This document shows, piece after piece, positions 1 through 59,008 of a stretch of 64,000 nucleotides of DNA; position 1 is the stretch's first letter; each line of letters opens with the position of its first letter. This stretch comes from an uncultured Candidatus Saccharibacteria bacterium. GTDB taxonomy: Bacteria; Patescibacteriota; Minisyncoccia; Phycocordibacterales; PALSA-1337. The translations under genes and the position numbers were made by a program. The notes beneath the pieces were generated by a model, which did no database searches, was not told where the DNA came from, and worked only from the letters and a program-made list of their open reading frames with translations. The stretch lies in assembly GCA_964403205.1 (NCBI GenBank), contig CAYOER010000001.1, positions 14,037 through 78,036 of the forward strand. The letters run 5' to 3'.

Positions 1-1988
1 TACCTTTTGAAGATAATGGGTATGTATATACTTCTGTGGATGCCGGAGTATCTTGGACAAGACGAGATAGTGCAGGACAGCGTGCTTGGACAGTTATTAC
101 TTCATCATCAGACGGTATGAGATTGGCTGCTGGTAGCTATGATAATATTAATAATCCTAGTGGATACATATATACGTCTGCAGATGGCGGAGCAACATGG
201 ATACAGAGAACAGGAGTGGGATATCGTTCATGGTCATCTCTTTCTTCATCAGCCGATGGTATGAGATTGGCTGCTGGTGAGTGGGGTGTTGGTGGAAATA
301 TATATATATCTTCAGATGGTGGAGTGACTTGGGTACCGAGTTTAGGGTTAGAAAGTAATCATTCTTGGGCAGATATTGCTTCATCGAATGATGGTATGAA
401 ATTAGCAACTAATAGTTATGGTGGAAACATATATACTTCCACTGACGGTGGTTTATCATGGATACATAGATTTAATACTGGAGGTATTACATTACATTCA
501 ATTGCATCATCAGCTGATGGTATAAAGCTCATTGCAGGAGACCTTTATCATAATTATGTATCTATAGATAGTGGAATATCATGGATAATACAAGATCTTC
601 CTGTACCAGCTGTTTGGTGGAATTCATTTTCAGTATCTGATGATGGTACACGATTTGTAGCATCTGTAGATGGTGGATATATATATACTAGTTATACAGC
701 TATTCCTTCATCAACTTTTGACTACTCTCTCTCTAATGGTGGTAACAGATATATAACTCCAGGAAGTACAGTTACAAATCCTATAACTGCAAATCTAGTA
801 TCAGGTACAACACAACCAATCAATCTGTATATTTCAAGTATAAAAAATAGTTCAAATGTAGAAGTATTCAATCAAGTAAATGGTATCGGTACAACATCGA
901 GTGCCTTAACAATAAATCCTGTAACACCTACTCAATCAAGCACACTCACTCTCTCTGCAACCGCTGGAGTACCTGCTGGAGTGTATACAGTGAATGTAAA
1001 TGGTATAGGAGATGGAGTAGCTCGCTCAACAAGCTTTACCGTAACTGTAGAATCATATAACCTAACTCTCGAAGATGGTAATACAGGAAATGGTGGTGGT
1101 GCAGCGGGATGTACCACTGGCTCTATTGTATTGACTTGGGATAAGGTAACTGGAATAGATCATTATAAAGTATATAGACAAGCTGGTAGTGATCCAGAGA
1201 TAGTAGTAAATGCAAATATAGCACAACCTAGCTCAGGTACTACAGTAACCTATGCAGATCAAGATCTAGCATCAGGTATATATACATATAGGGTAGAGGG
1301 CCTTCTCTCAGATAATACAATAGTAAGTAGTTCTCAACCGCAATCACACTTTGCTCCTGTAGATCCAGCTAAATGTCTATCATGTGATAATTTCACAGTA
1401 CCAGCATCTGTAATAAGTGGAGGTTCTGCAAATCTAGTATGGAATTCTACTAATGCCACTTCTTGCACTATAAAAAATGGATCTGGAACAACTCTATATT
1501 CAACTGAAGATGGAGATGAGACAATATCTAATATTACTAATCCACAGACATATAGATTATCATGTAATGGTCCAGAACCGATCGGAGAAGATAATATGTG
1601 TAGTATAAATCGTAGTCTGGTAGTAAGTGTAGAAGATACTTTCCCTCTATGGTTAAATGGAGATAGAAATGATATATCAGACAGAATAAGGGTTGGGCGA
1701 GAAATACATTTGAATTGGGAGACAACAGGTAAAGTTTCTGGAACTATAGTTCCTGATACATGTACTGGTAAAATTAAGAAAAATGGTAGTGATAGTACAA
1801 TGTCAGGATGGACAAATACAAATCTTTCTAAAGATAATATTATAAATCCTTTTGATTTAACATTGAGTGAAAGAGGGGATTATCAATTGACAGTACGATG
1901 TGATAGAGATACAGGTACATTAACAGATAGTGTTACTAGTAATCCAGTAAATATTAAGGTAACTCAAAGTACAATACAAGAAAGATAA
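1..1988 (+). CDS. BNR/Asp-box repeat surface protein with C-terminal Ig-like/fibronectin-like regions, 5' partial (reading frame is open to the window edge)
   Basis: Repeated S-x-D-x-G-x-(T/S)-W motifs (YIYTSADGGATW, IYISSDGGVTW, IYTSTDGGLSW and others) every ~45 aa. The frame upstream of the track start (nt 3-35) still encodes a repeat (YVYTSVDAGVSW) with no stop. The C-terminal half is Thr/Ser/Asn-rich and beta-rich. Confidence 0.6.
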   Translation, partial: PFEDNGYVYTSVDAGVSWTRRDSAGQRAWTVITSSSDGMRLAAGSYDNINNPSGYIYTSADGGATWIQRTGVGYRSWSSLSSSADGMRLAAGEWGVGGNIYISSDGGVTWVPSLGLESNHSWADIASSNDGMKLATNSYGGNIYTSTDGGLSWIHRFNTGGITLHSIASSADGIKLIAGDLYHNYVSIDSGISWIIQDLPVPAVWWNSFSVSDDGTRFVASVDGGYIYTSYTAIPSSTFDYSLSNGGNRYITPGSTVTNPITANLVSGTTQPINLYISSIKNSSNVEVFNQVNGIGTTSSALTINPVTPTQSSTLTLSATAGVPAGVYTVNVNGIGDGVARSTSFTVTVESYNLTLEDGNTGNGGGAAGCTTGSIVLTWDKVTGIDHYKVYRQAGSDPEIVVNANIAQPSSGTTVTYADQDLASGIYTYRVEGLLSDNTIVSSSQPQSHFAPVDPAKCLSCDNFTVPASVISGGSANLVWNSTNATSCTIKNGSGTTLYSTEDGDETISNITNPQTYRLSCNGPEPIGEDNMCSINRSLVVSVEDTFPLWLNGDRNDISDRIRVGREIHLNWETTGKVSGTIVPDTCTGKIKKNGSDSTMSGWTNTNLSKDNIINPFDLTLSERGDYQLTVRCDRDTGTLTDSVTSNPVNIKVTQSTIQER

Positions 1989-2014
1989 AAGGTACCTAGT
2001 ATGATATAAAAAAG

Positions 2015-2050
2015 GAAGCTCCCTGACCATGTGATAGTCTGGGAGCTTTT
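2015..2050. terminator. bidirectional rho-independent terminator hairpin between convergent genes
   Basis: gaagctccc-(17 nt loop)-gggagctt followed by tttt on the + strand; on the - strand the hairpin is followed by a U-tract (the A-run at 2007-2013). Confidence 0.5.
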
Positions 2051-2061
2051 GATAATGAGTG

Positions 2062-3102
2062 TCACAGTCCTTTCACTCGAAAGAAACTGCGCTGTGAACT
2101 CGGAAGGGTGATTTCGAAAGCCTGTTCTCCATAGTAATCAGGTATCCTCTCAACCCTATAGACCTCAGTCCAAGTGGTAAAGTTCGTAGACTCTTCTAAA
2201 AGGAGTGTTCTGAAGGAGTCTCCTCCTAATACCCTGATGGTAACTGTACCATCAAGATTATTGGTGATGCTCGTACGAATAGGGATGATCCCGGGTCTTT
2301 CGACTCCAGAACCATCTACTACTCTGTATGCACCATCATTTACTATGAGCTTGAATCTATTAGGCTCACCGGTAAGAAATCTGGTCTCAATGAACAACAG
2401 TTCATTTGCTCTATCAACCCAACCAATTTCTGGATCTGGATTGTTCTTGGAGTCCTTTACTCCCCAACTAATGATGTTACCGTTCTCGTCATAAGGCTGT
2501 TGAACAGCCCAACGGATTGTTGGAATGAAAAATACAAGTTTTGGTACGATTGGCATTTTGTATCCAGACAGATCTGGAATATTGTATTTTCCACTTACAC
2601 TACTATACTGAAATTCAAGAGTTGATAAGTATTCAAAGAAGTCAAAAAACTCCATACGCCCAGCTCTACCTACGAGACCATCAGCATAAGCATGGATAAT
2701 GAATTCCTTGCTGAAATCAGCATTGGTATTTGTAAGTGTTTGATTCAATACCTCACTGAGCTTCGATTGAAACATAGCATCAACTTCAGCTTTACTCTTG
2801 AATCGAGGATTATCAACGAAAGTTCTACCTGTAACAAAGAGTTGATTATCACTCTGTCTTCTCTGCATTGCAAAGATAACAAAGGATGATCTACAGTTTG
2901 TCGCTGCATAGTTTTCCACATCGTCGAATGGAAGAGAGAGAACTGTTCCACCCTGCACCACCTGAGCTTTTGCTTCGATGGTGATTGAGATGATGACTGA
3001 AATCGCGATCAGGAGGATCGCGATGAACCGAAACCAACGATTGATCGTGTTCACGATCTTCCTTTCTCTTTTAATTGTTATTGTTCCATAGATTTCACTC
3101 AT
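2062..3102 (-). CDS. hypothetical membrane-anchored/secreted protein (N-terminal TM helix), in a G+C-elevated islet
   Basis: 346-aa ORF with a single N-terminal hydrophobic helix (RWFRFIAILLIAISVIISITI). No recognisable catalytic motif. Its composition is clearly richer in G+C than the flanks. Confidence 0.45.
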   Translation of the reverse strand: MSEIYGTITIKRERKIVNTINRWFRFIAILLIAISVIISITIEAKAQVVQGGTVLSLPFDDVENYAATNCRSSFVIFAMQRRQSDNQLFVTGRTFVDNPRFKSKAEVDAMFQSKLSEVLNQTLTNTNADFSKEFIIHAYADGLVGRAGRMEFFDFFEYLSTLEFQYSSVSGKYNIPDLSGYKMPIVPKLVFFIPTIRWAVQQPYDENGNIISWGVKDSKNNPDPEIGWVDRANELLFIETRFLTGEPNRFKLIVNDGAYRVVDGSGVERPGIIPIRTSITNNLDGTVTIRVLGGDSFRTLLLEESTNFTTWTEVYRVERIPDYYGEQAFEITLPSSQRSFFRVKGL

Positions 3103-3261
3103 TAGACGTCAATGAGCTGAATCTGTCAAGATTATAGCACAGGTAAATTAAAAGTAAAGGAATTAATAAGTCAAGTGGAAAACTCTATATTTTAGCTATA
3201 AAATAAGACGCAATTATCTAATTTAATACAATTTAAACATAATTTATGATAATATGTATTT

Positions 3262-4125
3262 ATGAGTAAGGAAATTATAGAAAAATTGGAAAAATTGAAA
3301 CTATTTCTAGATACTAAAAATAATGTTCTAGCTGCATTTTTATTTGGTTCATATGCTAAGGATATGACTCATAGGGAATCAGATATAGATATTGCTATAT
3401 ATTTTAATCCGGAAGGTAAAGATGTGGAATACGAAGAAGAAAGACAATATGATGGAGAGGATGAATTATGGTCAGAAATTGAAAAAATATTAGAGATAAA
3501 GACAGATATGGTTGTATTGAACAGAGCATCATCAACTCTTGCAGACTCTATTATAAAGACTGGGAAATTACTCATAATGAAAGATCAAAAGTATTTTACT
3601 AGATTCACAAATGTAATAAATGAAGCTGCTGATTATTATAGAGATTATATGGATGATTTTCTTAAAATAAAAGAAAGATCAAATTCATTGAGTCTTACTG
3701 ATAAAGAAAGGCTAATTAAAATAACAGAATTTCTGGAACAAGAAATTAAGGATTTTCCTATTTTCAGGCAAATTGATCAGATAAAATATCAAAATGATAG
3801 AGGAACAAAAAGAAATATGGAAAGATGGGTTGAAAATATTGTCAATTCTAGTATAGATATAGCAAAGATCATTCTTGCTTCAGAGAAAAAACTTATTCCT
3901 AATACATATAAAACAATTTTAGAGAATCTAATTGAGGTAAATAATTTTGATTTAGAAAAAGCTAAGGCTCTTGGAAGATTTGCAAAAATTAGAAATATTC
4001 TCGCTCATGAATATCTTGATCTAAGGTTCAATAAGATTAGGGAATTCCTAGCTAATTCAGAAGAATACTATTCTTATCTCGTTTCTTTTTCAAGAGATTT
4101 TATTAAAAAAGATAAGGAAATCTAA
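3262..4125 (+). CDS. single-chain fusion of a minimal nucleotidyltransferase (MNT, Pol-beta fold) and a HEPN (DUF86/HepT-like) domain
   Basis: N-terminal LFGSYAKD...ESDIDIAIYF (GS-x9-13-DxD NTase signature). C-terminal FAKIRNILAHEY matches the HEPN Rx4-6H motif. Confidence 0.6.
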   Translation: MSKEIIEKLEKLKLFLDTKNNVLAAFLFGSYAKDMTHRESDIDIAIYFNPEGKDVEYEEERQYDGEDELWSEIEKILEIKTDMVVLNRASSTLADSIIKTGKLLIMKDQKYFTRFTNVINEAADYYRDYMDDFLKIKERSNSLSLTDKERLIKITEFLEQEIKDFPIFRQIDQIKYQNDRGTKRNMERWVENIVNSSIDIAKIILASEKKLIPNTYKTILENLIEVNNFDLEKAKALGRFAKIRNILAHEYLDLRFNKIREFLANSEEYYSYLVSFSRDFIKKDKEI

Positions 4126-8441: not shown

Positions 8442-10250
8442 GTGATACAATATTTCCTTATGAAAAAATTAGGGGAAAATGTGTCCAATGCTCAAGTTAT
8501 AAAGCATATGTGGAACGGTACAAAATCATATCGTCCATATTTTTCTATATCCTATATTCTATTTAATTTAGCTAATATTATAGGTATATTAGTACCACTT
8601 TATTATAAAGATTTCTTTGATATTCTCAGTAAATCAGATGATCGTGCATTACTCGTTCCATCACTTATAAAGATTGTAATAATAATAGCTATTATACATT
8701 TTACAACATGGTTAATCTGGAGGATTGGTACATATTTCTATAATAAATCAGTATCAAGAGTTATGGCACTTTTGAAACAGAATGCTTTTGATTATATGAT
8801 GCGTCATTCTTATAACTTTTTTACCAATAATTTTACCGGTAGTCTAGTACAGAGATTAAATAGATTCAGCCGTGCTTTCGAAGCATTGAATGATACTCTA
8901 GTATTCAATATTTTCCCTCTGATTATAGCTATAGTAAGCTCTATAATAGTTACATATTTCATAGCACCTATTATTTCTCTTGTAATTACAATATGGGTTA
9001 TATTATTTATGATATTTAATATTTCTTTTTCAATTTGGAAATTGAAATATGATACAGCTGTGGCTGAAGCGGATTCTCGTACTAGTGGTTATCTATCTGA
9101 TTCTATTACTAATAATAATGCTATTATGCTTTTCACTGGTAATAGATATGAAACAATAGGATTCAATAAAGTATCAGATGATCAATCAAATAAAACCTTT
9201 CTAACCTGGACATTGAATGAAGTTTCAGATGCAGTGCAAGTAATTCTTATTGGTACTGTAGAATTTTTTGTATTTTATTTTTCTATTAAGTATTGGCAGA
9301 ACGGTCTAGCTACAGTCGGTACATTCGTATTGGCACAGACATATATTATAGGACTTTCACATCAGCTATGGGGTGTTGGTAGAGCTGTACGCAAGATCTA
9401 TGAAAGCTTTGCAGATTCAAAGGAAATGGTAGGAATATTAGAAATGCCATATGAGGTAAAGGATATACCAAATGCAAAAAATATTATTGTGAAAAATGGT
9501 GAAATAATCTTCAAAAATGTAACTTTTGCCTTCAATGAAACAAGAGAAGTAATAAAAGATTTAAATATTACAATAAAATCTGGTGAGAAAATAGCTATTA
9601 TAGGACCATCTGGAGCGGGGAAGACGACTTTTATTCGTCTTATTATGAGATTATACAATATAACATCTGGATCTATCTCCATTGATAATCAAGATATACA
9701 TACTGTAACTCAAGACAGTCTAAGAGATAATATAAGTCTCGTCCCTCAGGATCCTGTACTTTTTCACCGTACTCTCTTAGAGAATATCCGTTATGGAAAA
9801 AGAAATGCAAATGATGAAGAGGTGATAGAGGCAGCCAGACTAGCGCATTGTGATGAATTCATAGAAACTTTACCATTGAAATATAATACCTATGTCGGCG
9901 AGCGTGGAATAAAGCTTTCTGGTGGAGAACGTCAGAGAGTAGCTATTGCTAGAGCAATATTGAAGAAAGCTCCAATACTCATATTAGATGAGGCTACATC
10001 TAGTTTAGACTCTCATTCTGAAGCTCTGATACAGGATGCATTGGACAATCTTATGAAAAATTGTACAACTATTGTTATTGCTCATCGTCTATCAACAATA
10101 AAGAAAATGGATAGGATAATAGCCATGAAAGATGGGAAAATAGTAGAAGAGGGAACACATGATGAACTTGCAAATATGGATAGTGGATTATATAAAAAGT
10201 TATGGGATCTGCAGGTAGGTGGGTTTATAAAAGAAGAGGAAGGGGAATAG
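8442..10250 (+). CDS. ABC exporter, fused permease plus ATPase (MsbA/bacteriocin-exporter type without a peptidase domain)
   Basis: Six N-terminal TM helices; Walker A GPSGAGKTT; signature LSGGERQRVAIARA; Walker B ILILDEATS; H-loop IAHRLS. Confidence 0.85.
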   Translation: MIQYFLMKKLGENVSNAQVIKHMWNGTKSYRPYFSISYILFNLANIIGILVPLYYKDFFDILSKSDDRALLVPSLIKIVIIIAIIHFTTWLIWRIGTYFYNKSVSRVMALLKQNAFDYMMRHSYNFFTNNFTGSLVQRLNRFSRAFEALNDTLVFNIFPLIIAIVSSIIVTYFIAPIISLVITIWVILFMIFNISFSIWKLKYDTAVAEADSRTSGYLSDSITNNNAIMLFTGNRYETIGFNKVSDDQSNKTFLTWTLNEVSDAVQVILIGTVEFFVFYFSIKYWQNGLATVGTFVLAQTYIIGLSHQLWGVGRAVRKIYESFADSKEMVGILEMPYEVKDIPNAKNIIVKNGEIIFKNVTFAFNETREVIKDLNITIKSGEKIAIIGPSGAGKTTFIRLIMRLYNITSGSISIDNQDIHTVTQDSLRDNISLVPQDPVLFHRTLLENIRYGKRNANDEEVIEAARLAHCDEFIETLPLKYNTYVGERGIKLSGGERQRVAIARAILKKAPILILDEATSSLDSHSEALIQDALDNLMKNCTTIVIAHRLSTIKKMDRIIAMKDGKIVEEGTHDELANMDSGLYKKLWDLQVGGFIKEEEGE

Positions 10251-29873: not shown

Positions 29874-30012
29874 GGGATTGGAAGATTAGATAAAATTAAA
29901 TAAAAAAAGAAATGGCAATCAGAAATGGTTGTCTTTTCTTTTGACTATTCTTAATCTTTATTATAGACTTCTCATAAACCTTGCTCTTCTAACAATCAAC
30001 CCCAATGCTAGA

Positions 30013-30471
30013 GTTATGAATAATCAAGTAAAGCCAATATCTTTTCTGCTACTTCAGAAAGAGTTTCTCTCAGCAATAAAGTCTCAGTGTCACATGCTAG
30101 GTGTGAGGGGCAGTAAAGATCTGTCTGTCAGGACCGGTATCAGTGAGGAGACTGCTACGGTTCTCTATAACTCTGCATATAGCAAAACGCCTATCACAAC
30201 GGTGCTGGTGGTGAATGGTAGGGAATGGGATGATGTTTTTTCCTGCCTCGGTATATCCTGGGCTGTAGTGGTGAATCAAGTATTAGAAATGTCTACAGAC
30301 GAAGCCATTTCCGAGCAGGACATTCTTGTGCCTATTGATACAGAACTTTCCATTTTCGGATACTATACTGCATTCATTCTCAAGGCGAGTATGATTACAC
30401 CCGCTATGATTGGATTTCACGATGGTGACACCAGGACTATGTCCGTCAGTCATCATTTTGGTGAATGGTGA
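30013..30471 (+). CDS. hypothetical protein (G+C-rich islet); start set at MNNQVKP
   Basis: An ORF of about 50% G+C with no recognisable motif. It is followed by a strong terminator at 30498-30530 (accgcgt-catgc-acgcggt plus a T-tract). Confidence 0.45.
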   Translation, partial: VMNNQVKPISFLLLQKEFLSAIKSQCHMLGVRGSKDLSVRTGISEETATVLYNSAYSKTPITTVLVVNGREWDDVFSCLGISWAVVVNQVLEMSTDEAISEQDILVPIDTELSIFGYYTAFILKASMITPAMIGFHDGDTRTMSVSHHFGEW

Positions 30472-30801: not shown

Positions 30802-32574
30802 ATGAAAATAATCGGTAATGACCCGATCAGTTATCTGTTTGGGAAAACGTGGAAGTATTCCGAAGGGAATAGGAAAAAGATAGTTGCGTACTGGCTGTGT
30901 TTCATCACTGCCAACGCTTTCTCTCTCATCACATATCCACTCACATTGTCGGAGTTAATCAATACGGTGCAGTTGCAGGGAATTACGAGCGATAACTTCG
31001 CATATTTATGCATGTTGCTCGCTATACTTCCTCTGACGAACTTCATCTTTTGGTGTTTCCATGGACCAGGTAGATACCTAGAAAGTATGAACAGCTTTCG
31101 CTGTCGGATAAATAAACGCAAACATCTCTTTAAGGGTGTTATGACGCTTCCTATGCAATGGCATGTAGATCATCATTCTGGGGACACAATCAGTAAAGTA
31201 GGAAAGGGCACACAGGCACTTTTCGACTTTTCATCGGAGGCATTTCTTGTCATACGACTAATTGTCATGCTCATCGTCTGTTGTTACATGCTCGCTCGAA
31301 ATAGTATTTCGATTGCACTCATCGTCGCAGGTACGGTACTACTTACTACGTGTATCACGATGTATTTCGATAAGGTCATCATGGCCTATCTCGAAATCTT
31401 GAACAAGCTTGAGAATGAAGCAGCTGCAGAAGTTCAGGATAACATTGGCAATATTGTCACGGTTATTATCCTTCGGGTTGAAAACTTCGTCTATGCTCGA
31501 ATCGGCAAGAAACTTGATGAACCGCTCGCAGTTCAAGGTAAGTATCGAAAAGCAATTGAGATGAAATGGTTTCTTATCAGTATGTCTGGTGTCGTACTTA
31601 CTTCAATGGTACTTCTCTCGTACTTCATCGAGCATCTTGATAGTCCAGAGAAATTGCTTGTCGGAAGTATTGTACTTCTCACACAGTATTTGGATAGACT
31701 TGAAAATGTCTTCTACGACTTTACAAGTATCTACTCCAATATTGTGCAGCAATACACGCAAGTGCAAGACTCGGAAAAACTCACAGAAGAGTTCCGAGAA
31801 AAAAGTTTGCAAAATCATCTTCTGCCGAAGGATTGGAGGGAAATAACAGTCAGAGATCTTAACTTTTCGTATCATCGTGAGAAGAGTCGGGAACAACACC
31901 TTACCAATCTCTCATTTTGGATACGTAGAGGCGAAAAGATCGCCTTTGTCGGTAAAAGTGGAAATGGAAAGTCGACATGCTTTAGTCTGATCATGGCACT
32001 TTACGATGCATTATCGGCTGAAATCTCTGTCGATGGTGTTACTGTTCCGAATGGCTTTGAGGGGATTTGTCGTGATATCGCGCTCGTCCCACAGGCTCCA
32101 GAGATATTTGCTACCACTGTGCGTGAGAATATCACAATGGGAGCAGATGTGAGTGAAGAGACACTTCGTCACTATACAGAGATGGCTTGTCTCACCGATG
32201 TTGTCGAACGCATGCCGAAAAAGTTTGATTCGAAGATTAACGAGAAGGGTGTGAATCTTTCTGTTGGCGAACAACAACGGCTTGCCCTCGCACGAGGATT
32301 GCTAGTCTGTAAAGACAAATCAATCATCTTACTCGATGAGCCTACTAGTAGTCTCGATGCTGTAACTGAATTCCGTGTATATGAAAATGTATTTCGGATC
32401 AAAAATACAGCTGTCATCTCCTCGATTCACCGTTTCAACCTACTACCACTTTTTGACTACATTTATGTATTTGAGAAGGGTAGGATTGTCGCTCATGGAA
32501 CTCTATTAGAACTTCGTAAGCGAAGCTCTGAGTTTCAAGAATTGTACAAGAGTTACGAGAACGCTCAGAAGTAA
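30802..32574 (+). CDS. ABC exporter (fused TMD-NBD) in a G+C-rich islet
   Basis: Walker A GKSGNGKST; signature LSVGEQQRLALARGL; Walker B IILLDEPTS; an N-terminal 6-TM domain. G+C is clearly higher than the backbone. Confidence 0.8.
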   Translation: MKIIGNDPISYLFGKTWKYSEGNRKKIVAYWLCFITANAFSLITYPLTLSELINTVQLQGITSDNFAYLCMLLAILPLTNFIFWCFHGPGRYLESMNSFRCRINKRKHLFKGVMTLPMQWHVDHHSGDTISKVGKGTQALFDFSSEAFLVIRLIVMLIVCCYMLARNSISIALIVAGTVLLTTCITMYFDKVIMAYLEILNKLENEAAAEVQDNIGNIVTVIILRVENFVYARIGKKLDEPLAVQGKYRKAIEMKWFLISMSGVVLTSMVLLSYFIEHLDSPEKLLVGSIVLLTQYLDRLENVFYDFTSIYSNIVQQYTQVQDSEKLTEEFREKSLQNHLLPKDWREITVRDLNFSYHREKSREQHLTNLSFWIRRGEKIAFVGKSGNGKSTCFSLIMALYDALSAEISVDGVTVPNGFEGICRDIALVPQAPEIFATTVRENITMGADVSEETLRHYTEMACLTDVVERMPKKFDSKINEKGVNLSVGEQQRLALARGLLVCKDKSIILLDEPTSSLDAVTEFRVYENVFRIKNTAVISSIHRFNLLPLFDYIYVFEKGRIVAHGTLLELRKRSSEFQELYKSYENAQK

Positions 32575-40118: not shown

Positions 40119-40598
40119 CTAGCTCGCAATGCCACACATTGCCTGCCGACGCTTCTTGCTATGCCCATTTCTGCCGTTGCGCCCATGGGTGCTATTGGCG
40201 AGAGCGACAATTTCTTCATTTGAAATACCGCCTCGAATTGGAAGGACAAGGGCTGGCTTACATGGAAACCAATCCTCTGCAATCACATCGGATTGCTGAG
40301 TCGGGAAGACTGCATCCTCCACCGGCTTTCTGGCAGTTTTTCCATCGAAACTCTTGCGAGGTCCCCAGATCCAGGCACAGAGTTTGTTGTCTGTACTTCT
40401 ACCGTCTAGGATCAGGACGATCAGATCCCCAGTCTGTGGATGTTCGTCGAGGTGGTTTTCAGTGATCCACCCAGACTCAGTCTCTCTGCAGGAATCGATG
40501 TGGATATAGACTTCGCCTTGGCTGGTATTTTCCAAGCTAGCAAAGCCGAACCCCCGATTTCCGAATCGAGTCACTGTCGCAAACCTAATCTGTGCCAT
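40119..40598 (-). CDS. cold-shock-domain (CSD) protein with a ~100-aa C-terminal extension, in a G+C-rich (about 55%) islet
   Basis: The N-terminal ATVTRFGNRGFGFASLE...GEVYIHID matches the CSD RNP motifs (G.VKWFN..KGFGFI ... DVFVHFS). Confidence 0.6.
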   Translation of the reverse strand: MAQIRFATVTRFGNRGFGFASLENTSQGEVYIHIDSCRETESGWITENHLDEHPQTGDLIVLILDGRSTDNKLCAWIWGPRKSFDGKTARKPVEDAVFPTQQSDVIAEDWFPCKPALVLPIRGGISNEEIVALANSTHGRNGRNGHSKKRRQAMCGIAS

Positions 40599-50179: not shown

Positions 50180-51982
50180 ATGGAAATTAGAAATATAGCA
50201 ATAATAGCCCATGTGGACCACGGGAAGACTACTCTGACTGACGCTATCATGACTCAATGTGGCCATGGTGATGAAGGTAGTATGGACTCCAATGCTCTAG
50301 AACAAGAGCGTGGTATTACTATTTATGCGAAAAATACTTCAATAAAGTATAAAGATACAAAGATAAATATTGTAGATACTCCTGGACATGCTGATTTCGG
50401 CTCTGAAGTTGAACGTGTATTGCGTTCTATCGATACTGTCCTCCTTGTAGTAGATGCTCAGGAGGGTCCTATGCCACAGACACGCTTCGTATTGAAGAAA
50501 TCTCTAGAATTAGGATTGAAACCTATTGTAGTTATAAATAAAATTGATAAACATGCAGCAAATCCTGAACATGCTCATGAACAGGTATTAGAGCTTTTCA
50601 TGGAGCTTGGTGCAAATGATTCCCAATTAGACTTCCCTACTGTATATGCTATAGGACGTGATGGTGTAGCTATGAAGAAATTAGCAGATGAAAGAAAAGA
50701 TATAACTCCACTTCTAGACACTATATTGGAACATATTCCACCTGCAAATAAAGATCATAGCAATGAATCTCCGCTCACATTGCAGACCTTCAATCTTGGT
50801 TATGACAATTTCCTAGGACGTTTGGCAATCGGTCGTATCTATGATGGGACAATTAAAACTGGACAAACTGTCTTTGAAAAGAAGATAGATGGTTCTGTTT
50901 CCTCAGGAAAAGTTACGAAACTCTTTACATTCGAAGGAAAACAGAGGATAGAAATAGAAGAGGCGAGTGCAGGAGATATTGTGACTATTGCCGGTTTCCC
51001 AAATATATATATTGGAGAGACTATTACAGATAATGAAGCTACCCCTGCTCTACCAGCTATAAGGATAGATGAACCTACTATTTCTCTAAACTTTTTTGTA
51101 AATAATTCCCCTTTTGCTGGACGTGAGGGTAAATTCGTCACTGGTAGGCAGATACGTGAAAGACTAGAGAAAGAATTAGAAGTCAATGTCGGATTAAAAG
51201 TAGATTTTACTTCAAATGAATATTATAGAGTTTTCGGTCGTGGAGAATTGCATATCGCTATTCTATTAGAGAATATGCGTCGTGAAGGTTATGAATTACA
51301 AGTCTCTCAACCACAAGTAATCATAAAAGATATAGCAAATGAAAAAGGTGAAATGATAAAAAGTGAACCATACGAGGAACTCACTATCGATGTACCAGAT
51401 GAATTCACAGGGGCTATTATAGAAAAACTGGGTCAGAGAAAAGCCGTAATGCTCGATATGAAAAATAAAAATGGACAAACACGTATGATATTCGATATTC
51501 CCACTCGTGGTCTACTAGGATATCGTAGTGTTTTCGTAATTGATACAAAGGGTGAAGGAATACTAGGTAGTAGATTCACAGATTTCAGACCTTATGTTGG
51601 AGAAATTGAAAGACATAATACAGGATCAATGACATCTATGATGGCTGGTAAAGCACTAGCATTCGCACTGTGGAATCTACAAGAACGTGGAAGAATATTC
51701 ATAGTGCCAACTACAGAAGTCTATGAAGGAATGGTAGTCGGTGATACATCTAAGGGTGATGATATGGATGTGAATCCATGTAAAGGAAAAGCAATGTCCA
51801 ATATGCGTTCTTCTGGAAATGATGAGCATATTATGCTCACTCCGGCTTGGACGCTAGATATAGAGAAGGGGCTTGAAACAATGCGTGAAGATGAATATCT
51901 AGAGATAACACCTATAAATGTGAGGTTGCGTAAGAGATTTCTGACTGGTACAGATAGAGCTAGAGCGGGGAGGAAAGAATAG
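50180..51982 (+). CDS. typA: translational GTPase TypA/BipA
   Basis: [21 protein letters not shown], the DTPGHADF G-domain, and TypA-specific C-terminal domains. The start is set at MEIRN rather than the upstream ATG at 50120. Confidence 0.9.
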
Positions 51983-52001
51983 TTATACTCCTATTTGGGT
52001 A

Positions 52002-52805
52002 TTAATAGCAAGTTGTCCCAAGCTTTAATGATTTTGTTAAGTAATACATAGGGTTTTTGAATAATTCTGGTGAGGAAAATCTGAATGAAAATTCCCTCAC
52101 ATATTTTTCTAAATTAGTTGACCAATGATGATGATACATTCTTCTAACAAAAGTACGGTAGTTTCCAAATACTCCTTCGATTTCTGATGTATGAGCAAAT
52201 TCAAATCTTTTATGTATATCTCTACTGTGTTTAACTGGCCACCATTTGTTAATTCCTTTGTAAATCGCTGCACCATCAGTCCACAGTTTAGATCCTGGTT
52301 TAACTTTTCTAAAGAGAAAATATCCTGCATGATGTCTCTGTACTGATGTCCCAATAATGACATCATATGCTAGTTTTCTAGTTCCTTTTTGTTTACCCAT
52401 AACCAATGTCATATCCTTGAAATACGCCTCGTCTAACTGCACTATACGCTCTAGAATGTGGGTTTCCCGTGGTAATTGTCCTCTGAATGTGTCAAACCAC
52501 TTACGTATACAAAGTGGAGATAGTTCTGTAAATGCAACCGTTTGTTTAACTGGTATCTCACAACTCTAACACCAGAGTATCATCCACCACTTTTGAAGTG
52601 GTAATTTTAAATTAGAAAGCCATGTGTGTGACAGGAGAGAGAATCTGATGCGACAATCTTTACACCTATATCGACCTGATTGTATTCCTATTCGTCTCGA
52701 CTTACATTCAGGACAAAATATGTTCTTGCCAAACAATATTCTGCGAATATATTTTCTAATTTGTGCCTCACTTGGTATTTGATTGTGTGTATACATAATG
52801 TCCAT
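52002..52805 (-). pseudogene. IS1595-family (ISXO2-like) transposase disrupted by a frameshift
   Basis: The N-terminal piece (52566-52805) has the zinc ribbon CPECKSRRIG...RYRCKDCRIRFS. The C-terminal piece (52002-52442) has VQLDEAYF (the first D of DDE) and HTSEIEGVFGNYRTFVRRMYHHHW...REFSFRF. The linking segment (KWFDTFRGQLPRETHILERI) is readable only in a different frame from the N-piece. Confidence 0.75.
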
Positions 52806-52828
52806 ATTCTAATATGTATGGGACAACT
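52011..52828 (-). mobile_element. IS1595-like insertion sequence (~0.82 kb) with perfect 10-bp terminal inverted repeats
   Basis: AGTTGTCCCA at 52011-52020 and its reverse complement TGGGACAACT at 52819-52828. The left IR overlaps the transposase stop and the right IR lies just upstream of its start. Confidence 0.65.
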
Positions 52829-52901
52829 GGTATATATTACCCTCCTATTTACTATTGACAAGGATACTAAATCATGATAGTCTCGCATATAGATTCGCAC
52901 C

Positions 52902-53189
52902 ATGAAAAATGCATATCAAATCCTAGGGGTTTCCCCTGCCGCTAGTATAGCGGAAATCAAGGATGCGTACCGAAAACTCTCGGTACATTGGCATCCGGAC
53001 AAAAACAAGAGTCCGGAAGCTGGGCACACCTTTGCCTCGATTTCGGAAGCTTATGGCATCCTCTCTGACTCGCGCAAGCGACAAGAGTTGGATGAAAAGA
53101 TTTCCAAAGGCCAAGTTGAGAATATCAATGAGGTCGTGGAGAGAGTCGTGGATTCATTTCTTGATTCGTTAACTGAACGGAAACACTAA
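52902..53189 (+). CDS. J-domain-only protein (DnaJ N-terminal domain, 95 aa)
   Basis: YQILGVSPAASIAEIKDAYRKLSVHWHPDKN with the HPD tripeptide. G+C is about 50%. Confidence 0.8.
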   Translation: MKNAYQILGVSPAASIAEIKDAYRKLSVHWHPDKNKSPEAGHTFASISEAYGILSDSRKRQELDEKISKGQVENINEVVERVVDSFLDSLTERKH

Positions 53190-53219
53190 TCAACAACAAA
53201 ACAAAGAGAAAGGATACGG

Positions 53220-53648
53220 GTGAGGACACTGAACGTAGTGGTAAATGAACTTCGTGAACAAATTGAGGAGGCTACAGATCCCAAGGATCCAAACAAGCTT
53301 CCACAATACACCGCTTCGCTGCGGGATGGTATTGATTCGTTTGTCTCGATGCTCACTGATGACCCGACGATGGCCGCGCTCGCATTCCACAATCAAATCA
53401 GATACGACAATCAGTCGGTTATGATCAAAATTGTGGAACACGACACGGTATCCGGTAGTGATTGGCCGCTTATCAAGCAGTCGATCCAAGTGCGCCCCGA
53501 TGCGCATAAGGCCGTCAAAACCCTTGAACAAGCTGGGCTCGAAGCAGTATTGGCGACCGCTGTGGCCGCCAACTTCAAGCTCACACAACAACGTCGCGCT
53601 CAACGCGAGGCGTTGGAACAAGAAGAGGAGTACCAAAATGTTGAATGA
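53220..53648 (+). CDS. hypothetical protein (G+C-rich cassette gene 2)
   Basis: A 142-aa ORF with no recognised motif. Its stop overlaps the next start (ATGTTGAATGA). Confidence 0.45.
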   Translation: MRTLNVVVNELREQIEEATDPKDPNKLPQYTASLRDGIDSFVSMLTDDPTMAALAFHNQIRYDNQSVMIKIVEHDTVSGSDWPLIKQSIQVRPDAHKAVKTLEQAGLEAVLATAVAANFKLTQQRRAQREALEQEEEYQNVE

Positions 53649-54351
53649 ACAAGACAAAATGAGTGAGCATGAAAAGCTCGTCACCGTACTTCGTTATCAG
53701 GGTGCATTGGCTGTCGAAAGTCAGCTTGTGGATCTTGCCAATAAGGAGGGTGATGAAGCCATTGTGAGAATCGCCGGAAATCTATCTGCTGCCGAAGTTG
53801 CGCAAGTAACTTCTGAGGCAGATATGGTCAGCCCGTCACTTCTGCATACTGCAGTCAATCTCGAACAGTTCCGCGGAGTATTTCGGCGCATAGGCGTTCG
53901 ATGGAGCTCTGCGGAACAAGAGGATTGCTCACCTGAAACACTTCAGGAACTTCAGGATGAACTCAAACAGTTCTTCTGTGCATTCATTCTTCTGAACGAA
54001 GACGGAAAGCGTCGCGTTGAACTGATGAATGTCATTCTGGACGAGCCGCACGGTATCCATGCCCTAGTCTTCAGTGTCGTCCACGAAAAGGACTTTCTTG
54101 AATTCCTAGAATCCAATGGAAGCACTAGTGATGTCGGGGATTGGCGCGAGGTTATTGGGATCTTGCGTAACAACTTTCCCGAACAGTGGGAACGGTTCAA
54201 GAAAATTTTACCGGACTGTTACAACGGTAATGATTACCTCAACTTCATTCATGAGATCGCCGCTGAAATCTATGCGGTAGCCGTGTCTCAAGGAGCCGTC
54301 AGACGAACAGAAGTCGAAAAAGCGGATGATCTATTTATTCCGCTTGAATAG
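53638..54351 (+). CDS. hypothetical protein (G+C-rich cassette gene 3); start set at MLNEQDK
   Basis: A 238-aa ORF. The longer track ORF from 53431 overlaps gene 2 out of frame and is taken as a 5' over-extension. Confidence 0.4.
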   Translation: MLNEQDKMSEHEKLVTVLRYQGALAVESQLVDLANKEGDEAIVRIAGNLSAAEVAQVTSEADMVSPSLLHTAVNLEQFRGVFRRIGVRWSSAEQEDCSPETLQELQDELKQFFCAFILLNEDGKRRVELMNVILDEPHGIHALVFSVVHEKDFLEFLESNGSTSDVGDWREVIGILRNNFPEQWERFKKILPDCYNGNDYLNFIHEIAAEIYAVAVSQGAVRRTEVEKADDLFIPLE

Positions 54352-54413
54352 GCATGCAAACCAACAGCCTCCCCGAGTGACCCTCCGGGAGGCTGTATTT
54401 CTGAAAGGAATAT

Positions 54414-55388
54414 ATGAATCTGCAAATTAGAGATAAACGAGATCCGTTCACCCAAGCGTTGGCATTTCTTTTCAGAAGCGAGGAGAATGTGCTGACATTA
54501 AGACGAAAGCTCCATAAGGAAATGATTTCTCTTGTGACTCAAGTCGCGGTGAAAATTGGTGGTATCGATACCGAAAAAGCTGTTCGTGATCGTGCATTAG
54601 CGGTATTCACTGGAATCGTAAGTCTCTATCTGATGAATCTAACAAAAGGTTCGAACAATCCTGAAGAATGGTCAAGGATTGTGAGCTCTGGAGATCTCAG
54701 AATACTTTTCCAGCGTGGATATACGATGATACATGAAATCCTTCATGGTCGTTGGAAATTGGAGATTGAAAAGGATGGCAAAAGAATATTCTACGAAACC
54801 AGGACTGAACGACTTGAACAATTCGCTGTTCATCGGATAAATGATCAATGGGCAGGGTATATTCTATACCTCAAGGAAGCAACTTCGCTGAAAGAGGAGA
54901 TTCTCTGGAGTGAATTCGCAAATTGGTTAAAAGACGATTACAGCGGAAAAAGAGAACATAGAAGAATTTCTGAACAGAGCCTTTTTCATGAAGGAGAACT
55001 TTTTGAAGAAGGAGAAATTATCAGAAGAGTGTTCTACCACATCCTTCATTCTGGTAAGCCTTCTTTTATAATGAACTTTCGAATAGCACGTGAGATTGTG
55101 GATCACGCACAGAAAGACAAAAAGTGGCTACAGAAGGCTACAATCAACTACTCCAGATTCGTTACTAGCTTACCACTTCGTTTTCAGGAATGCTTTCTCT
55201 ATCAAGTGAGAGAAGATGAACCGGGAAACAGTATAATGAGCGAAGTATCTTCTGTTTGGAGGAATGTGAAGTGGATATGCAGAAAACGCAAGCATAGCAA
55301 TAGATCAGAAGCAATCGATTCTGTTTGTATTAATACAGGAGTTCCATCTCCTGGACTTAGTAAATCAAACAGAACTACATTCGAATAG
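54414..55388 (+). CDS. hypothetical protein (G+C-rich cassette gene 4)
   Basis: A 324-aa ORF with no recognised motif. Confidence 0.45.
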   Translation: MNLQIRDKRDPFTQALAFLFRSEENVLTLRRKLHKEMISLVTQVAVKIGGIDTEKAVRDRALAVFTGIVSLYLMNLTKGSNNPEEWSRIVSSGDLRILFQRGYTMIHEILHGRWKLEIEKDGKRIFYETRTERLEQFAVHRINDQWAGYILYLKEATSLKEEILWSEFANWLKDDYSGKREHRRISEQSLFHEGELFEEGEIIRRVFYHILHSGKPSFIMNFRIAREIVDHAQKDKKWLQKATINYSRFVTSLPLRFQECFLYQVREDEPGNSIMSEVSSVWRNVKWICRKRKHSNRSEAIDSVCINTGVPSPGLSKSNRTTFE

Positions 55389-55437: not shown

Positions 55438-56415
55438 TCACCCCCACTTCGTCTTTATATACTCCGTCGTCTCACTCATAGAGAATGGCTGAGTGGAGTT
55501 CCCTACTCTTACAAAAAAGTCTTCTTTTTTATCTCCATTTGTGAGATATGCTGGTTTATGACTTTCTTTTACATCTACAATACAAATCTCTTTATTTTCT
55601 ATTTTCTCAAATTTTATATTTATATATTTAGAAAAAGCTAAACCAATCATATTTTTTATAAGAGTATTAACATAATTTTCAAATCCGTCTTTATCTTTTC
55701 TCTGTTGCAAAGTTTTATAATCATTTTCTAGACCGATTATTTCACCATTATCTCTTACACCGATAAGCAGAATTCCACCAGAAGCATTGAGAAAACCTAC
55801 AATAGTTTTCATAATAGATTTCTCCATTTCCTTATTCATTTCATTCTTACGGATGTCATATCGCAATGTTTCTTTGAATTCTAAAAGTAATCCTTCACCA
55901 TCTTCTATTAAACTCTTTATATCTTTTATGAAAATCTTGCCAGATGAACTATGTACCATTTGCTTTATTATATATACATATTCTTCGAAATTCCCTATAT
56001 TCTTTATTTTTGTCACTCTCTCATTATTATGTTCAAGAATAATAGTGGCATGATTCATCATCCTACCTAGAGGACTCTGATATGTCTCTACAGATGCTAC
56101 GTCAGACAAACCTACACTTTTCTTTTTTCTAAACAAAAGCCCACTTTTCTTTATTATTTCTTTTTCTCTGATTTCATAATGAGAGAAGTACCAATCTAAA
56201 AAGAGAATACCAATATAGATAAATTGAAAAAATGAGAAGATTATTATTTCAAAGATATCAAAACGGATATAATCATGAAAACCAAGATTCCTAAACATCA
56301 TTTCATAATTACCAAGAAAAGAAACGGCAAAGAAGAATAGAGAAGCGATAATTTCCATAGCTATTAGATTGCGTAGGAAAACCAATGGTCCTTCTTTTAT
56401 TATTATTACTCTCAT
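55438..56415 (-). CDS. membrane protein fusing a bPH_2 (YdbS/YdbT-like bacterial PH) domain to a Schlafen-type AlbA_2 putative DNA/RNA-binding domain
   Basis: N-terminal two TM helices plus KKSGLLFRKKKSVGLSDVASVETYQSPLGRMMNHATIILE (bPH_2). C-terminal EGLLLEFKETL...KTIVGFLNASGGILLIGVRDNGEIIGLEND (AlbA_2 pattern EFK..FaNt.GG.lliGv.d.G.i.G). Confidence 0.55.
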   Translation of the reverse strand: MRVIIIKEGPLVFLRNLIAMEIIASLFFFAVSFLGNYEMMFRNLGFHDYIRFDIFEIIIFSFFQFIYIGILFLDWYFSHYEIREKEIIKKSGLLFRKKKSVGLSDVASVETYQSPLGRMMNHATIILEHNNERVTKIKNIGNFEEYVYIIKQMVHSSSGKIFIKDIKSLIEDGEGLLLEFKETLRYDIRKNEMNKEMEKSIMKTIVGFLNASGGILLIGVRDNGEIIGLENDYKTLQQRKDKDGFENYVNTLIKNMIGLAFSKYINIKFEKIENKEICIVDVKESHKPAYLTNGDKKEDFFVRVGNSTQPFSMSETTEYIKTKWG

Positions 56416-58423: not shown

Positions 58424-59008
58424 ATGAGACTGATAACATTTGATATTGAAACAAAGAATTTCTTTCAAGATGTAGGATCAAATGATCCGAAAGCTCTTGA
58501 TATTTCTGTTTTATGTATTCATGATTCTCTAGATAATAGCTATAAGAGTTTCCAAGAAAAAGACTTTCCCCTATTATGGCCTATTATAGAGAAGACAGAT
58601 GCATTGATCACATGGAATGGCGATCATTTCGATATTCCTATTCTTAATAAATATTATTCAGGAGATCTTACAAAGATAAAAAGCATAGATTTGATGAAAG
58701 AAATGAAGGATGTATTAGGAAAAAGGCTGAAACTTGATACAGTAGCAGAAGCGACTTTGGGAAAAAAGAAAAGTGGGAATGGCATGGAGGCGGTGTATTG
58801 GTGGAGAAATGGTGAAATAGATAAAATAATCAAATATTGTATAGAAGATGTAAGGATTACGAAAGAACTCTATGACTATGCAATTGCAAATAAAAGCTTG
58901 AAATACAAGGATCTAGGAGCAAATGGAGCAATATACGAAGTGAAATTAAATACAGATAATTGGGAGAAAAAGGAGGATAATGCCATGACTTTTACTTTAC
59001 CGTTCTAA
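58424..59008 (+). CDS. RNase H-like 3'-5' exonuclease (DEDD/YprB-like)
   Basis: ITFDIETKNFF (Exo I-like) and ITWNGDHFDIPIL (Exo II-like). Confidence 0.4.
   Translation: MRLITFDIETKNFFQDVGSNDPKALDISVLCIHDSLDNSYKSFQEKDFPLLWPIIEKTDALITWNGDHFDIPILNKYYSGDLTKIKSIDLMKEMKDVLGKRLKLDTVAEATLGKKKSGNGMEAVYWWRNGEIDKIIKYCIEDVRITKELYDYAIANKSLKYKDLGANGAIYEVKLNTDNWEKKEDNAMTFTLPF

Follow-up and report, generated by a model that had tools for sequence, protein, structure and literature searches.

A probable divergent, horizontally acquired AtcJ-AtcA-AtcB-AtcC system in an uncultured Candidatus Saccharibacteria genome

The window analyzed here, a 64-kb stretch from an uncultured Candidatus Saccharibacteria bacterium (assembly GCA_964403205.1, contig CAYOER010000001.1), contains at 52902-55388 a cassette of four genes that is probably a divergent AtcJ-AtcA-AtcB-AtcC (Atc) system, horizontally acquired from a lineage of the candidate phyla radiation (CPR) with about 50% G+C. 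The analysis shows that the four genes are homologous to those of Atc operons (gene 4 via intermediates) and follow the same order, that key residues are kept, that the composition is foreign and the location varies, and that the site is unoccupied in a relative. The initial annotation of this DNA had described a J-domain protein with three partners in a G+C-rich cassette beside an insertion sequence (IS), possibly a specialized Hsp70-recruiting system. The latter suggestion was essentially right: AtcJABC, a system already studied by experiment, is distantly homologous to the cassette. Its genes and putative promoter are as follows.

52902-53189, + strand: gene 1, atcJ-like; 95 aa, stand-alone J domain with a C-terminal helix of ~30 aa
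53220-53648, + strand: gene 2, atcA-like; 142 aa, GTG start after AAGGA
53638-54351, + strand: gene 3, atcB-like; 237 aa, ATG start at 53638, GAGGAG Shine-Dalgarno sequence at 53624-29
54414-55388, + strand: gene 4, atcC-like; 324 aa, ATG start after AAGGA
52855-52883, + strand: putative cassette promoter; TTGACA, 17 nt, TGaTAGTCT, read by eye

The four co-directional open reading frames (ORFs) were called identically by independent gene callers on five contigs 100% identical to the window, from at least three data sets. Genes 1 and 2 are separated by 30 nt and genes 3 and 4 by 62 nt, in agreement with the short gaps first annotated, while genes 2 and 3 share 11 nt, an overlap suggestive of translational coupling. 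The stop/start overlap originally assigned to genes 2 and 3 was an ATGA. This tetranucleotide exists (53645-48), but the ATG within it (53645-47) does not share the frame of gene 3, whose correct length is 237 aa and not 238 aa. The putative promoter, which would lie outside the IS, is absent from the output of a consensus scan because its −10 hexamer has only 3 of the 6 consensus positions.

The Atc system was described in Shewanella oneidensis (SO_1850-SO_1846) (PMC6715715). There, the HPD motif of AtcJ binds DnaK and a C-terminal PX7W peptide of AtcJ binds AtcC, the Trp of the motif being essential for the latter interaction (PMC6715715; bioRxiv 10.64898/2026.09.07.749886). AtcC in turn binds AtcB, which requires residues D37 and D60 for binding RNA polymerase (RNAP); overproduced AtcB is toxic unless AtcJ, AtcC, and DnaK limit the complex, and strains deleted for atcJ, atcB, or atcC do not grow at 7°C (bioRxiv 10.64898/2026.09.07.749886). 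As the canonical reference we used the operon of Aeromonas caviae, taken from a 4.9-Mb chromosome mislabelled as a plasmid (tblastn match), all four proteins of which score above the NCBIfam cut-offs. The window cassette has the same gene order, atcJ-atcA-atcB-atcC, with the same tight, co-directional packing, and the NCBIfam matches of genes 1 to 3 follow in the order AtcJ, AtcA, AtcB. The co-occurrence check proposed with the initial annotation gave a consistent result: the J-A-B-C order recurs in 10 related loci.

Gene 1 encodes a J domain (Pfam DnaJ, 2.8e-23, residues 3-64) with the HPD motif at residues 31-33, as had been annotated, and H31-P32-D33 is invariant in the AtcJ alignment. Its match to NCBIfam AtcJ (NF050028; 5e-11) covers positions 1-92 of the 93 in the model. 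It aligns over its full length with Aeromonas AtcJ, and the alignment also includes AtcJ proteins of intermediate operons (see below). A short stand-alone J protein with an HPD motif and an extension of ~30 aa, helical by alignment, is the AtcJ architecture; in gene 1 the extension includes an amphipathic C-terminal helix (..INEVVERVVDSFLDSL..). A search of PHROGs with the cassette returned J-domain families of unknown function only.

The remaining three proteins had been reported as having no recognizable motifs. Family models do exist for AtcA, AtcB, and AtcC, however, and genes 2 and 3 match theirs directly while gene 4 is linked via intermediates. Pfam-A gave nothing for genes 2 to 4 (the copy used apparently lacked the new AtcA and AtcB_N families), and searches of PDB sequences with these three genes gave nothing significant.

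Gene 2 matches NCBIfam AtcA (NF047888) at 2.8e-6 over residues 5-138, below equivalog level, and a protein identical to it (142 aa) has a precomputed Pfam match to PF27445:AtcA (E ≤ 1e-5). The alignment with Aeromonas AtcA spans the globular part of the latter. The Asp/Glu-rich disordered region is missing from gene 2, which ends in a short acidic tail (..EALEQEEEYQNVE) versus ~45 acidic residues in Aeromonas.

Gene 3 matches NCBIfam AtcB (NF047889) at 2.9e-6 and Aeromonas AtcB by BLASTP at 2e-8. In hhalign comparisons, the profile of its 20-member family aligned with Aeromonas AtcB at 94.2% probability (E = 1.1e-7, 202 columns) and with the AtcB family of the intermediate operons at 96.3% (E = 1.5e-9). 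Residues D39 and D62 of gene 3 align on the Aeromonas D37 and D60 with the identical 23-residue spacing. Both are invariant in all 20 gene 3 homologues and are accompanied by 39 invariant AtcB columns at 48-71% identity. A C-terminal DD(L/M)F..L end is common to gene 3 and Aeromonas AtcB, and the AlphaFold2 model of gene 3 has a pLDDT (predicted local distance difference test) of 83.5. Gene 3 is presumed to be the RNA-polymerase-binding component.

For gene 4 the connection is transitive and positional. A homologue 36% identical to it (E = 2e-42; P0004) matches NCBIfam AtcC at 1.2e-5. When the gene 4 family profile was run exhaustively with HMMER against 1.84 billion representatives, it returned 55 proteins, and 9 of the 38 second-tier hits matched AtcC (best E, 8.6e-18). 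Three of these AtcC-positive proteins are the fourth genes of L014 (GCA_964556655.1), L016, and L017, operons with AtcJ, AtcA, and AtcB matches in their first three genes that match all four Atc models at 1e-7 to 1e-20. The gene 4 family aligned with the fourth proteins of these operons at 97.1% (E = 4.8e-11), and the atcC-like gene holds the fourth place in every cassette. Profile-profile comparison, a check suggested at the outset, links both gene 3 to AtcB and, via these intermediates, gene 4 to AtcC. Gene 4 is hence treated as an AtcC homologue and presumed, by analogy, to be the adaptor between AtcJ and AtcB.

The intermediate operons provide the bridge from gene 4 to AtcC with the same J-A-B-C order, and share with the window clade the AtcB motifs EGD and E-H-D and a C-terminal F-x-P-L. 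They differ from it in having a canonical PX7W in AtcJ, an AtcA of 122-137 aa, an AtcB of 217-226 aa, and far better NCBIfam Atc scores; the composition of L014 is native. The likeness to the Shewanella system and its Aeromonas and Moritella orthologues extends to gene order, tight packing, and a J protein of ~90-95 aa with HPD and C-terminal helix. The Asp pair at 23-residue spacing in AtcB and its C-terminal D-x-F-x-x-L are shared with Shewanella and Aeromonas, and the aquatic, presumably cool habitat with all three genera. On the other hand, identity with Aeromonas is only 20-32% for J, A, and B, the window AtcB lacks an acidic insertion of ~30 residues that Aeromonas AtcB has, and the host is a probable CPR bacterium, not a proteobacterium.

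A further difference from Shewanella and Aeromonas is a conserved hairpin between atcB and atcC.

54364-54396, + strand: G+C-rich stem-loop in the atcB-atcC spacer; inverted repeat I7 with arms of 14 nt, 93% complementary

The stretch after it, UUUCUGAAAGGAA, includes the Shine-Dalgarno sequence of atcC; in the transcript, positions 54397-54413 read UUUCU(U)GAAAGGAA and include the atcC ribosome-binding site. A strong hairpin is predicted at this place in all five clade loci examined (the window, L011 6725-6757, L005 3044-3076, L009 10758-10785, and L008 1617-1647). The stem therefore appears to be maintained, since it is present in all five despite different stem sequences. Possible roles are partial termination, attenuation, or stabilization of the mRNA, any of which could set AtcC stoichiometry. 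An RNA thermometer acting on the atcC Shine-Dalgarno sequence was considered and dropped, as the predicted pairing of AGGAA is nearly the same at 5 and 37°C.

Several results weigh against the identification as an Atc system. Every NCBIfam equivalog cut-off is missed (42.9 bits versus 150 for gene 1, 27.3 versus 200 for gene 2, and 26.9 versus 440 for gene 3), and because all scores are so far under the cut-offs, the same function is not guaranteed. Gene 4 has no direct match to NCBIfam AtcC (NF047890) and no BLASTP alignment with Aeromonas AtcC, and its family profile aligns weakly with the latter by hhalign (33% probability, 4.5e-4). The PX7W motif is not kept in gene 1, where I and V occupy the aligned positions (..ENINEVVERVVDSF.., that is, I-x7-V) versus P-x7-W in Aeromonas, L014, and L016. 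The window contains no DnaK gene. The PX7W motif is nevertheless typical rather than strictly defining, since the describers of the system accept Atc systems in which it is degenerate or absent. In published systems from outside the Beta- and Gammaproteobacteria, PX7W is entirely missing from AtcJ, and yet experiments confirmed that J binds C and C binds B (bioRxiv 10.64898/2026.09.07.749886). AtcC in these systems is reported to be much longer than 298 aa, a difference from gene 4 with its 324 aa, and the published Verrucomicrobium AtcA also lacks the acidic disordered region. The published AtcB proteins from non-proteobacteria failed to bind RNAP of E. coli.

Specialized adaptors that bring a general chaperone to one client include HscB, DjlA, CbpA, and the tripartite toxin-antitoxin-chaperone systems. 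In the latter the chaperone controls a toxic protein, although it is a SecB-like chaperone and not DnaK with a J protein. To our knowledge none of these targets RNA polymerase, and the window cassette has no sequence relation to them beyond the J domain.

Turning to the origin of the cassette, the mean G+C of the window is 33.9%, compared to 44-53% over 52850-54650; it declines across gene 4 and is below 30% beyond 55400. Genes 1 to 4 have G+C contents of 0.46, 0.51, 0.47, and 0.40 (51 other window ORFs, 0.333 ± 0.045) and third-codon-position G+C (GC3) values of 0.49, 0.54, 0.47, and 0.35 (other ORFs, 0.254 ± 0.071), i.e., z scores of 3.3, 4.0, 3.0, and 1.4. The compositional contrast first noted for the whole cassette is thus real for genes 1 to 3 and mild for gene 4.

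Homologues of the cassette are rare. Among 5.8 billion proteins, at least 20 clusters (48-71% identity) were found for the AtcB-like protein and at least 5 for the AtcC-like protein, counts that are lower bounds because the sensitivity of the word-index search is limited (with a broad 47-sequence profile, the word-index protein search returned 8 proteins). The cassette is present in 3 of 185,579 GTDB species representatives, and the named carriers all belong to the CPR: Candidatus Paceibacterota, Candidatus Taylorbacteria, and an uncultured Candidatus Saccharibacteria genome. Seven loci showed seven different neighborhoods.

Window: typA, then SLFN-truB
L011: PDT/PDH (prephenate dehydratase/dehydrogenase) gene
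L005: IS256-type transposase; atcJ lost, atcC split
L007: infA, ribosomal proteins, rpoA, grpE-dnaK (grpE-dnaK 6.4 kb downstream of the cassette)
L009: DEDDh/RNase_H-like exonuclease
L030: mreB
L031: atpEFH

The A/B overlap was 8-17 nt in the five clade loci in which it was read (window, L005, L007, L009, and L011), while L031 has a 13-nt gap. In L009, L030, and L031 the cassette is native in composition (hosts ~51-53% G+C; GC3 0.49-0.67 in the cassette and 0.5-0.68 in the host). In L007 its GC3 is 0.62 versus 0.30-0.45 in the host, and the window cassette is likewise above its host. The L005 cassette also exceeds its host, although it is nearly ameliorated (GC3 0.29-0.34 versus ~0.2). This last locus (1161-4080; Candidatus Paceibacterota) is a decaying copy in which an IS256/Transposase_mut gene stands in place of atcJ and atcC is represented by ORFs of 85 and 198 aa. 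The closest relative of the window cassette is that of L030, with an AtcB 71% identical, in a genome of 51% G+C.

The insertion site itself is informative. In a groundwater relative (L020; TypA 74% and TruB 53% identical), typA and truB are convergent and lie 20 nt apart, with no IS, cassette, or SLFN gene between them. In a closer relative (L019; HisS 83% and SLFN 78% identical), truB-SLFN is followed by AT-rich DNA and a different gene, again with no cassette. The window segment 51983-56419 is therefore a variable island. The different gene of L019 (10790-10897; N terminus MANRNLTNAKRVKNDEFYTQYSDIQKEIE) starts where the window has the cassette, and we take its N terminus to resemble the start of some DNA methyltransferases; if it is one, the typA-truB site would be a hotspot for accessory genes.

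Horizontal acquisition, as first proposed, is supported by the GC3 contrast, the seven neighborhoods, the native composition in genomes of ~51-53% G+C, and the empty site in L020. The best reading is that a CPR lineage of higher G+C was the source of the cassette, which has since been ameliorated in part. Two points speak against this. The divergence between the window and L009 cassettes (43-59%) is similar to that of a flanking housekeeping-type exonuclease gene (53%), so that the transfer would have to be old or the donor unsampled; and the raised GC3 might in principle be intrinsic to the operon and say nothing of where it came from.

The cassette could instead be a native, vertically inherited operon, its high G+C arising from operon-specific constraints such as amino-acid content or mRNA structure. 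In the published analysis of 294 genomes, mostly from Beta- and Gammaproteobacteria, AtcB, AtcC, and AtcJ are congruent with the species tree (bioRxiv 10.64898/2026.09.07.749886), a vertical pattern from which the window evidence departs. The very high first-codon-position G+C of the cassette (GC1, 0.63) reflects Ala/Glu/Asp-rich proteins, cassette GC3 equals or exceeds host GC3 in nearly every locus, and, as said, the cassette has diverged about as much as a neighboring gene. GC3 is, however, largely independent of amino-acid content and lies 3 to 4 standard deviations over the window genes; the typA-truB site is empty in L020, and the SLFN orthologue of L019 has no cassette beside it. Together with the seven neighborhoods of seven loci, the presence in only 3 of the 185,579 species representatives, and a decaying L005 copy that adjoins a transposase, this makes vertical inheritance unlikely.

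The IS beside the cassette had been taken as a sign of its arrival.

51997-52842, − strand: IS1595-family insertion sequence; 846 bp

The family assignment held up, with a zinc ribbon (Zn_ribbon_IS1595, 7.6e-8) and a DDE domain (DDE_Tnp_IS1595, 6e-13) by Pfam, imperfect 24-nt inverted repeats (I2; 51997-52020 and 52819-52842, 75% complementary), and a directly flanking 8-bp direct repeat, TCCTATTT (51989-51996 and 52843-52850). An 8-bp target-site duplication is typical of IS1595 elements. Adjacency as evidence of arrival did not hold up. Since the duplication encloses the 846-bp IS alone, the element is an independent insertion in the spacer between typA and gene 1 and not the vehicle of the cassette. 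It is probably inactive, because its transposase, a single frame of 267 codons, is interrupted by one in-frame TAG (52566-52568). A composite transposon delivered by the IS was rejected, the duplication surrounding only the IS and no second IS copy or repeat flanking the cassette. Integration linked to a tRNA gene was also rejected, as ARAGORN found no tRNA gene in the window; nor did any Rfam family reach its gathering score there.

The initial annotation had also suggested an effector/assembly or anti-phage module. A form of this idea that takes the Atc homology into account is a selfish or defensive chaperone-dependent toxin-antitoxin or abortive-infection module, borrowing the DnaK of the host and spreading between ultra-small bacteria. 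In this reading AtcB would act as a toxin that inhibits RNAP and is restrained by AtcC, AtcJ, and DnaK; if a phage infected the cell or the cassette were lost, less orderly access to DnaK would release AtcB and halt transcription. Overproduced AtcB is indeed toxic via RNAP binding and rescued by AtcJ, AtcC, and DnaK (bioRxiv 10.64898/2026.09.07.749886). Among CPR genomes, the cassette is both patchily distributed and mobile, transposases or recombinases lie near the L005 and L014 cassettes, and the window cassette shares its variable island with the IS and a bPH/SLFN_AlbA_2 gene that gives a weak match to a pAgo-associated PADLOC model (3.2e-6). Yet none of the four cassette proteins matched PADLOC-DB v2 (E ≤ 0.1), nor did nine of ten neighbors tested from the six other loci, the tenth giving a weak generic DEDDh match. 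No AtcB-like gene was found in phage genomes, viral contigs, or plasmids, most of the other neighborhoods are housekeeping (ribosomal proteins with rpoA, mreB, the atp operon, and aminoacyl-tRNA synthetases), and deletion in Shewanella leads to poor growth in the cold instead of an addiction phenotype. The PADLOC searches and the lack of phage, viral-contig, and plasmid copies leave the anti-phage suggestion without backing, and we consider such a module quite improbable. If it were true, the cold-adaptation phenotype of Shewanella would be the domesticated side of a toxin logic.

Least probable is that an acquired operon has lost its function and that the cassette is what remains of it in decay, for although a population variant fuses AtcA and AtcB by a frame change, the L005 copy lacks atcJ and has a split atcC, and the adjacent IS is itself inactivated, the window has four intact ORFs with plausible ribosome-binding sites, the five contigs from at least three sequencing data sets are 100% identical to it, and HPD, D39, D62, and the 39 invariant AtcB columns are kept across homologues 48-71% identical. 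Loss does occur, as the fusion and the degraded L005 copy indicate. The fusion variant (P0084; a 3933-bp ENA contig from the population of the same strain) encodes a 370-aa AtcA-AtcB protein. Its frame switches within the AtcA tail (..KLTQQR, then WNKKRSTKMLNEQ..) at window positions 53590-53660, near a small inverted repeat (53594-53608), and may represent either real microdiversity or an assembly error.

The genes around the cassette add the following. To its right lies a second variable gene of the typA-truB island, as judged from its presence in L019, which has no cassette, and its absence from L020.

55438-56415, − strand: bPH_2 and SLFN_AlbA_2 membrane protein by Pfam; native low G+C, outside the Atc cassette

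The left neighbor encodes TypA/BipA (50210-51982, + strand), a ribosome-associated GTPase required for growth of E. coli at low temperature. Its adjacency to the cassette is probably coincidental, because typA directly abuts truB in L020. Some 3 kb to the right of the cassette, an RNase_H_2/DEDDh-type exonuclease gene (58424-59008, + strand) is 53% identical to one that directly adjoins the L009 cassette (8619-9197, − strand) in a different relative orientation; the shared gene could be a coincidence or a relic of an older linkage. Elsewhere in the window, raised GC3 was seen in 40119-40598 (− strand, 0.53), 29929-30471 (+ strand, 0.40), and 2062-3102 (− strand, 0.39), all without a Pfam match, and in an ABC transporter gene at 30802-32574 (+ strand, 0.44). 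These four ORFs may be further horizontally acquired genes.

By analogy with the Shewanella system, the divergent Atc system proposed here would work as follows. The 95-aa J protein would dock on host DnaK via its HPD motif, while its C-terminal helix would bind the AtcC-like adaptor. The adaptor would bind the AtcB-like protein, and the latter RNA polymerase via D39 and D62. The recruited DnaK would then limit or remodel the AtcB-RNAP complex, tuning its amount and coupling chaperone activity to transcription, presumably to let this groundwater bacterium grow when temperatures are low. As to history, the operon would have entered a low-G+C CPR genome, probably of Paceibacteria type, from a CPR lineage of ~50% G+C, inserting in the convergent typA-truB intergenic region and becoming partly ameliorated, and the IS1595 element would have inserted beside it later. 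All of the protein-protein contacts are inferred, as are the influence on RNAP, the connection with cold, and the direction in which the operon moved.

The Atc system is the only described case of a J-domain protein routing DnaK to an RNA-polymerase-binding protein. The system itself is already known, and the locus is an extension of it, to CPR bacteria with minimal genomes, rather than a new kind of system. We found no mention of Atc in CPR or Patescibacteria in the Atc literature searched. What is new is the CPR/Patescibacteria lineage, the degree of divergence, and the case for horizontal transfer (foreign GC3, a site left empty in a relative, seven neighborhoods, and a decaying copy beside a transposase) versus the vertical inheritance published so far. 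The divergent cassettes also offer a natural test set for the features that the system requires: HPD and the two AtcB aspartates are kept, while PX7W and the acidic tail of AtcA appear dispensable. They raise the question of how an RNAP-specific binder would remain compatible with its target after transfer between hosts.

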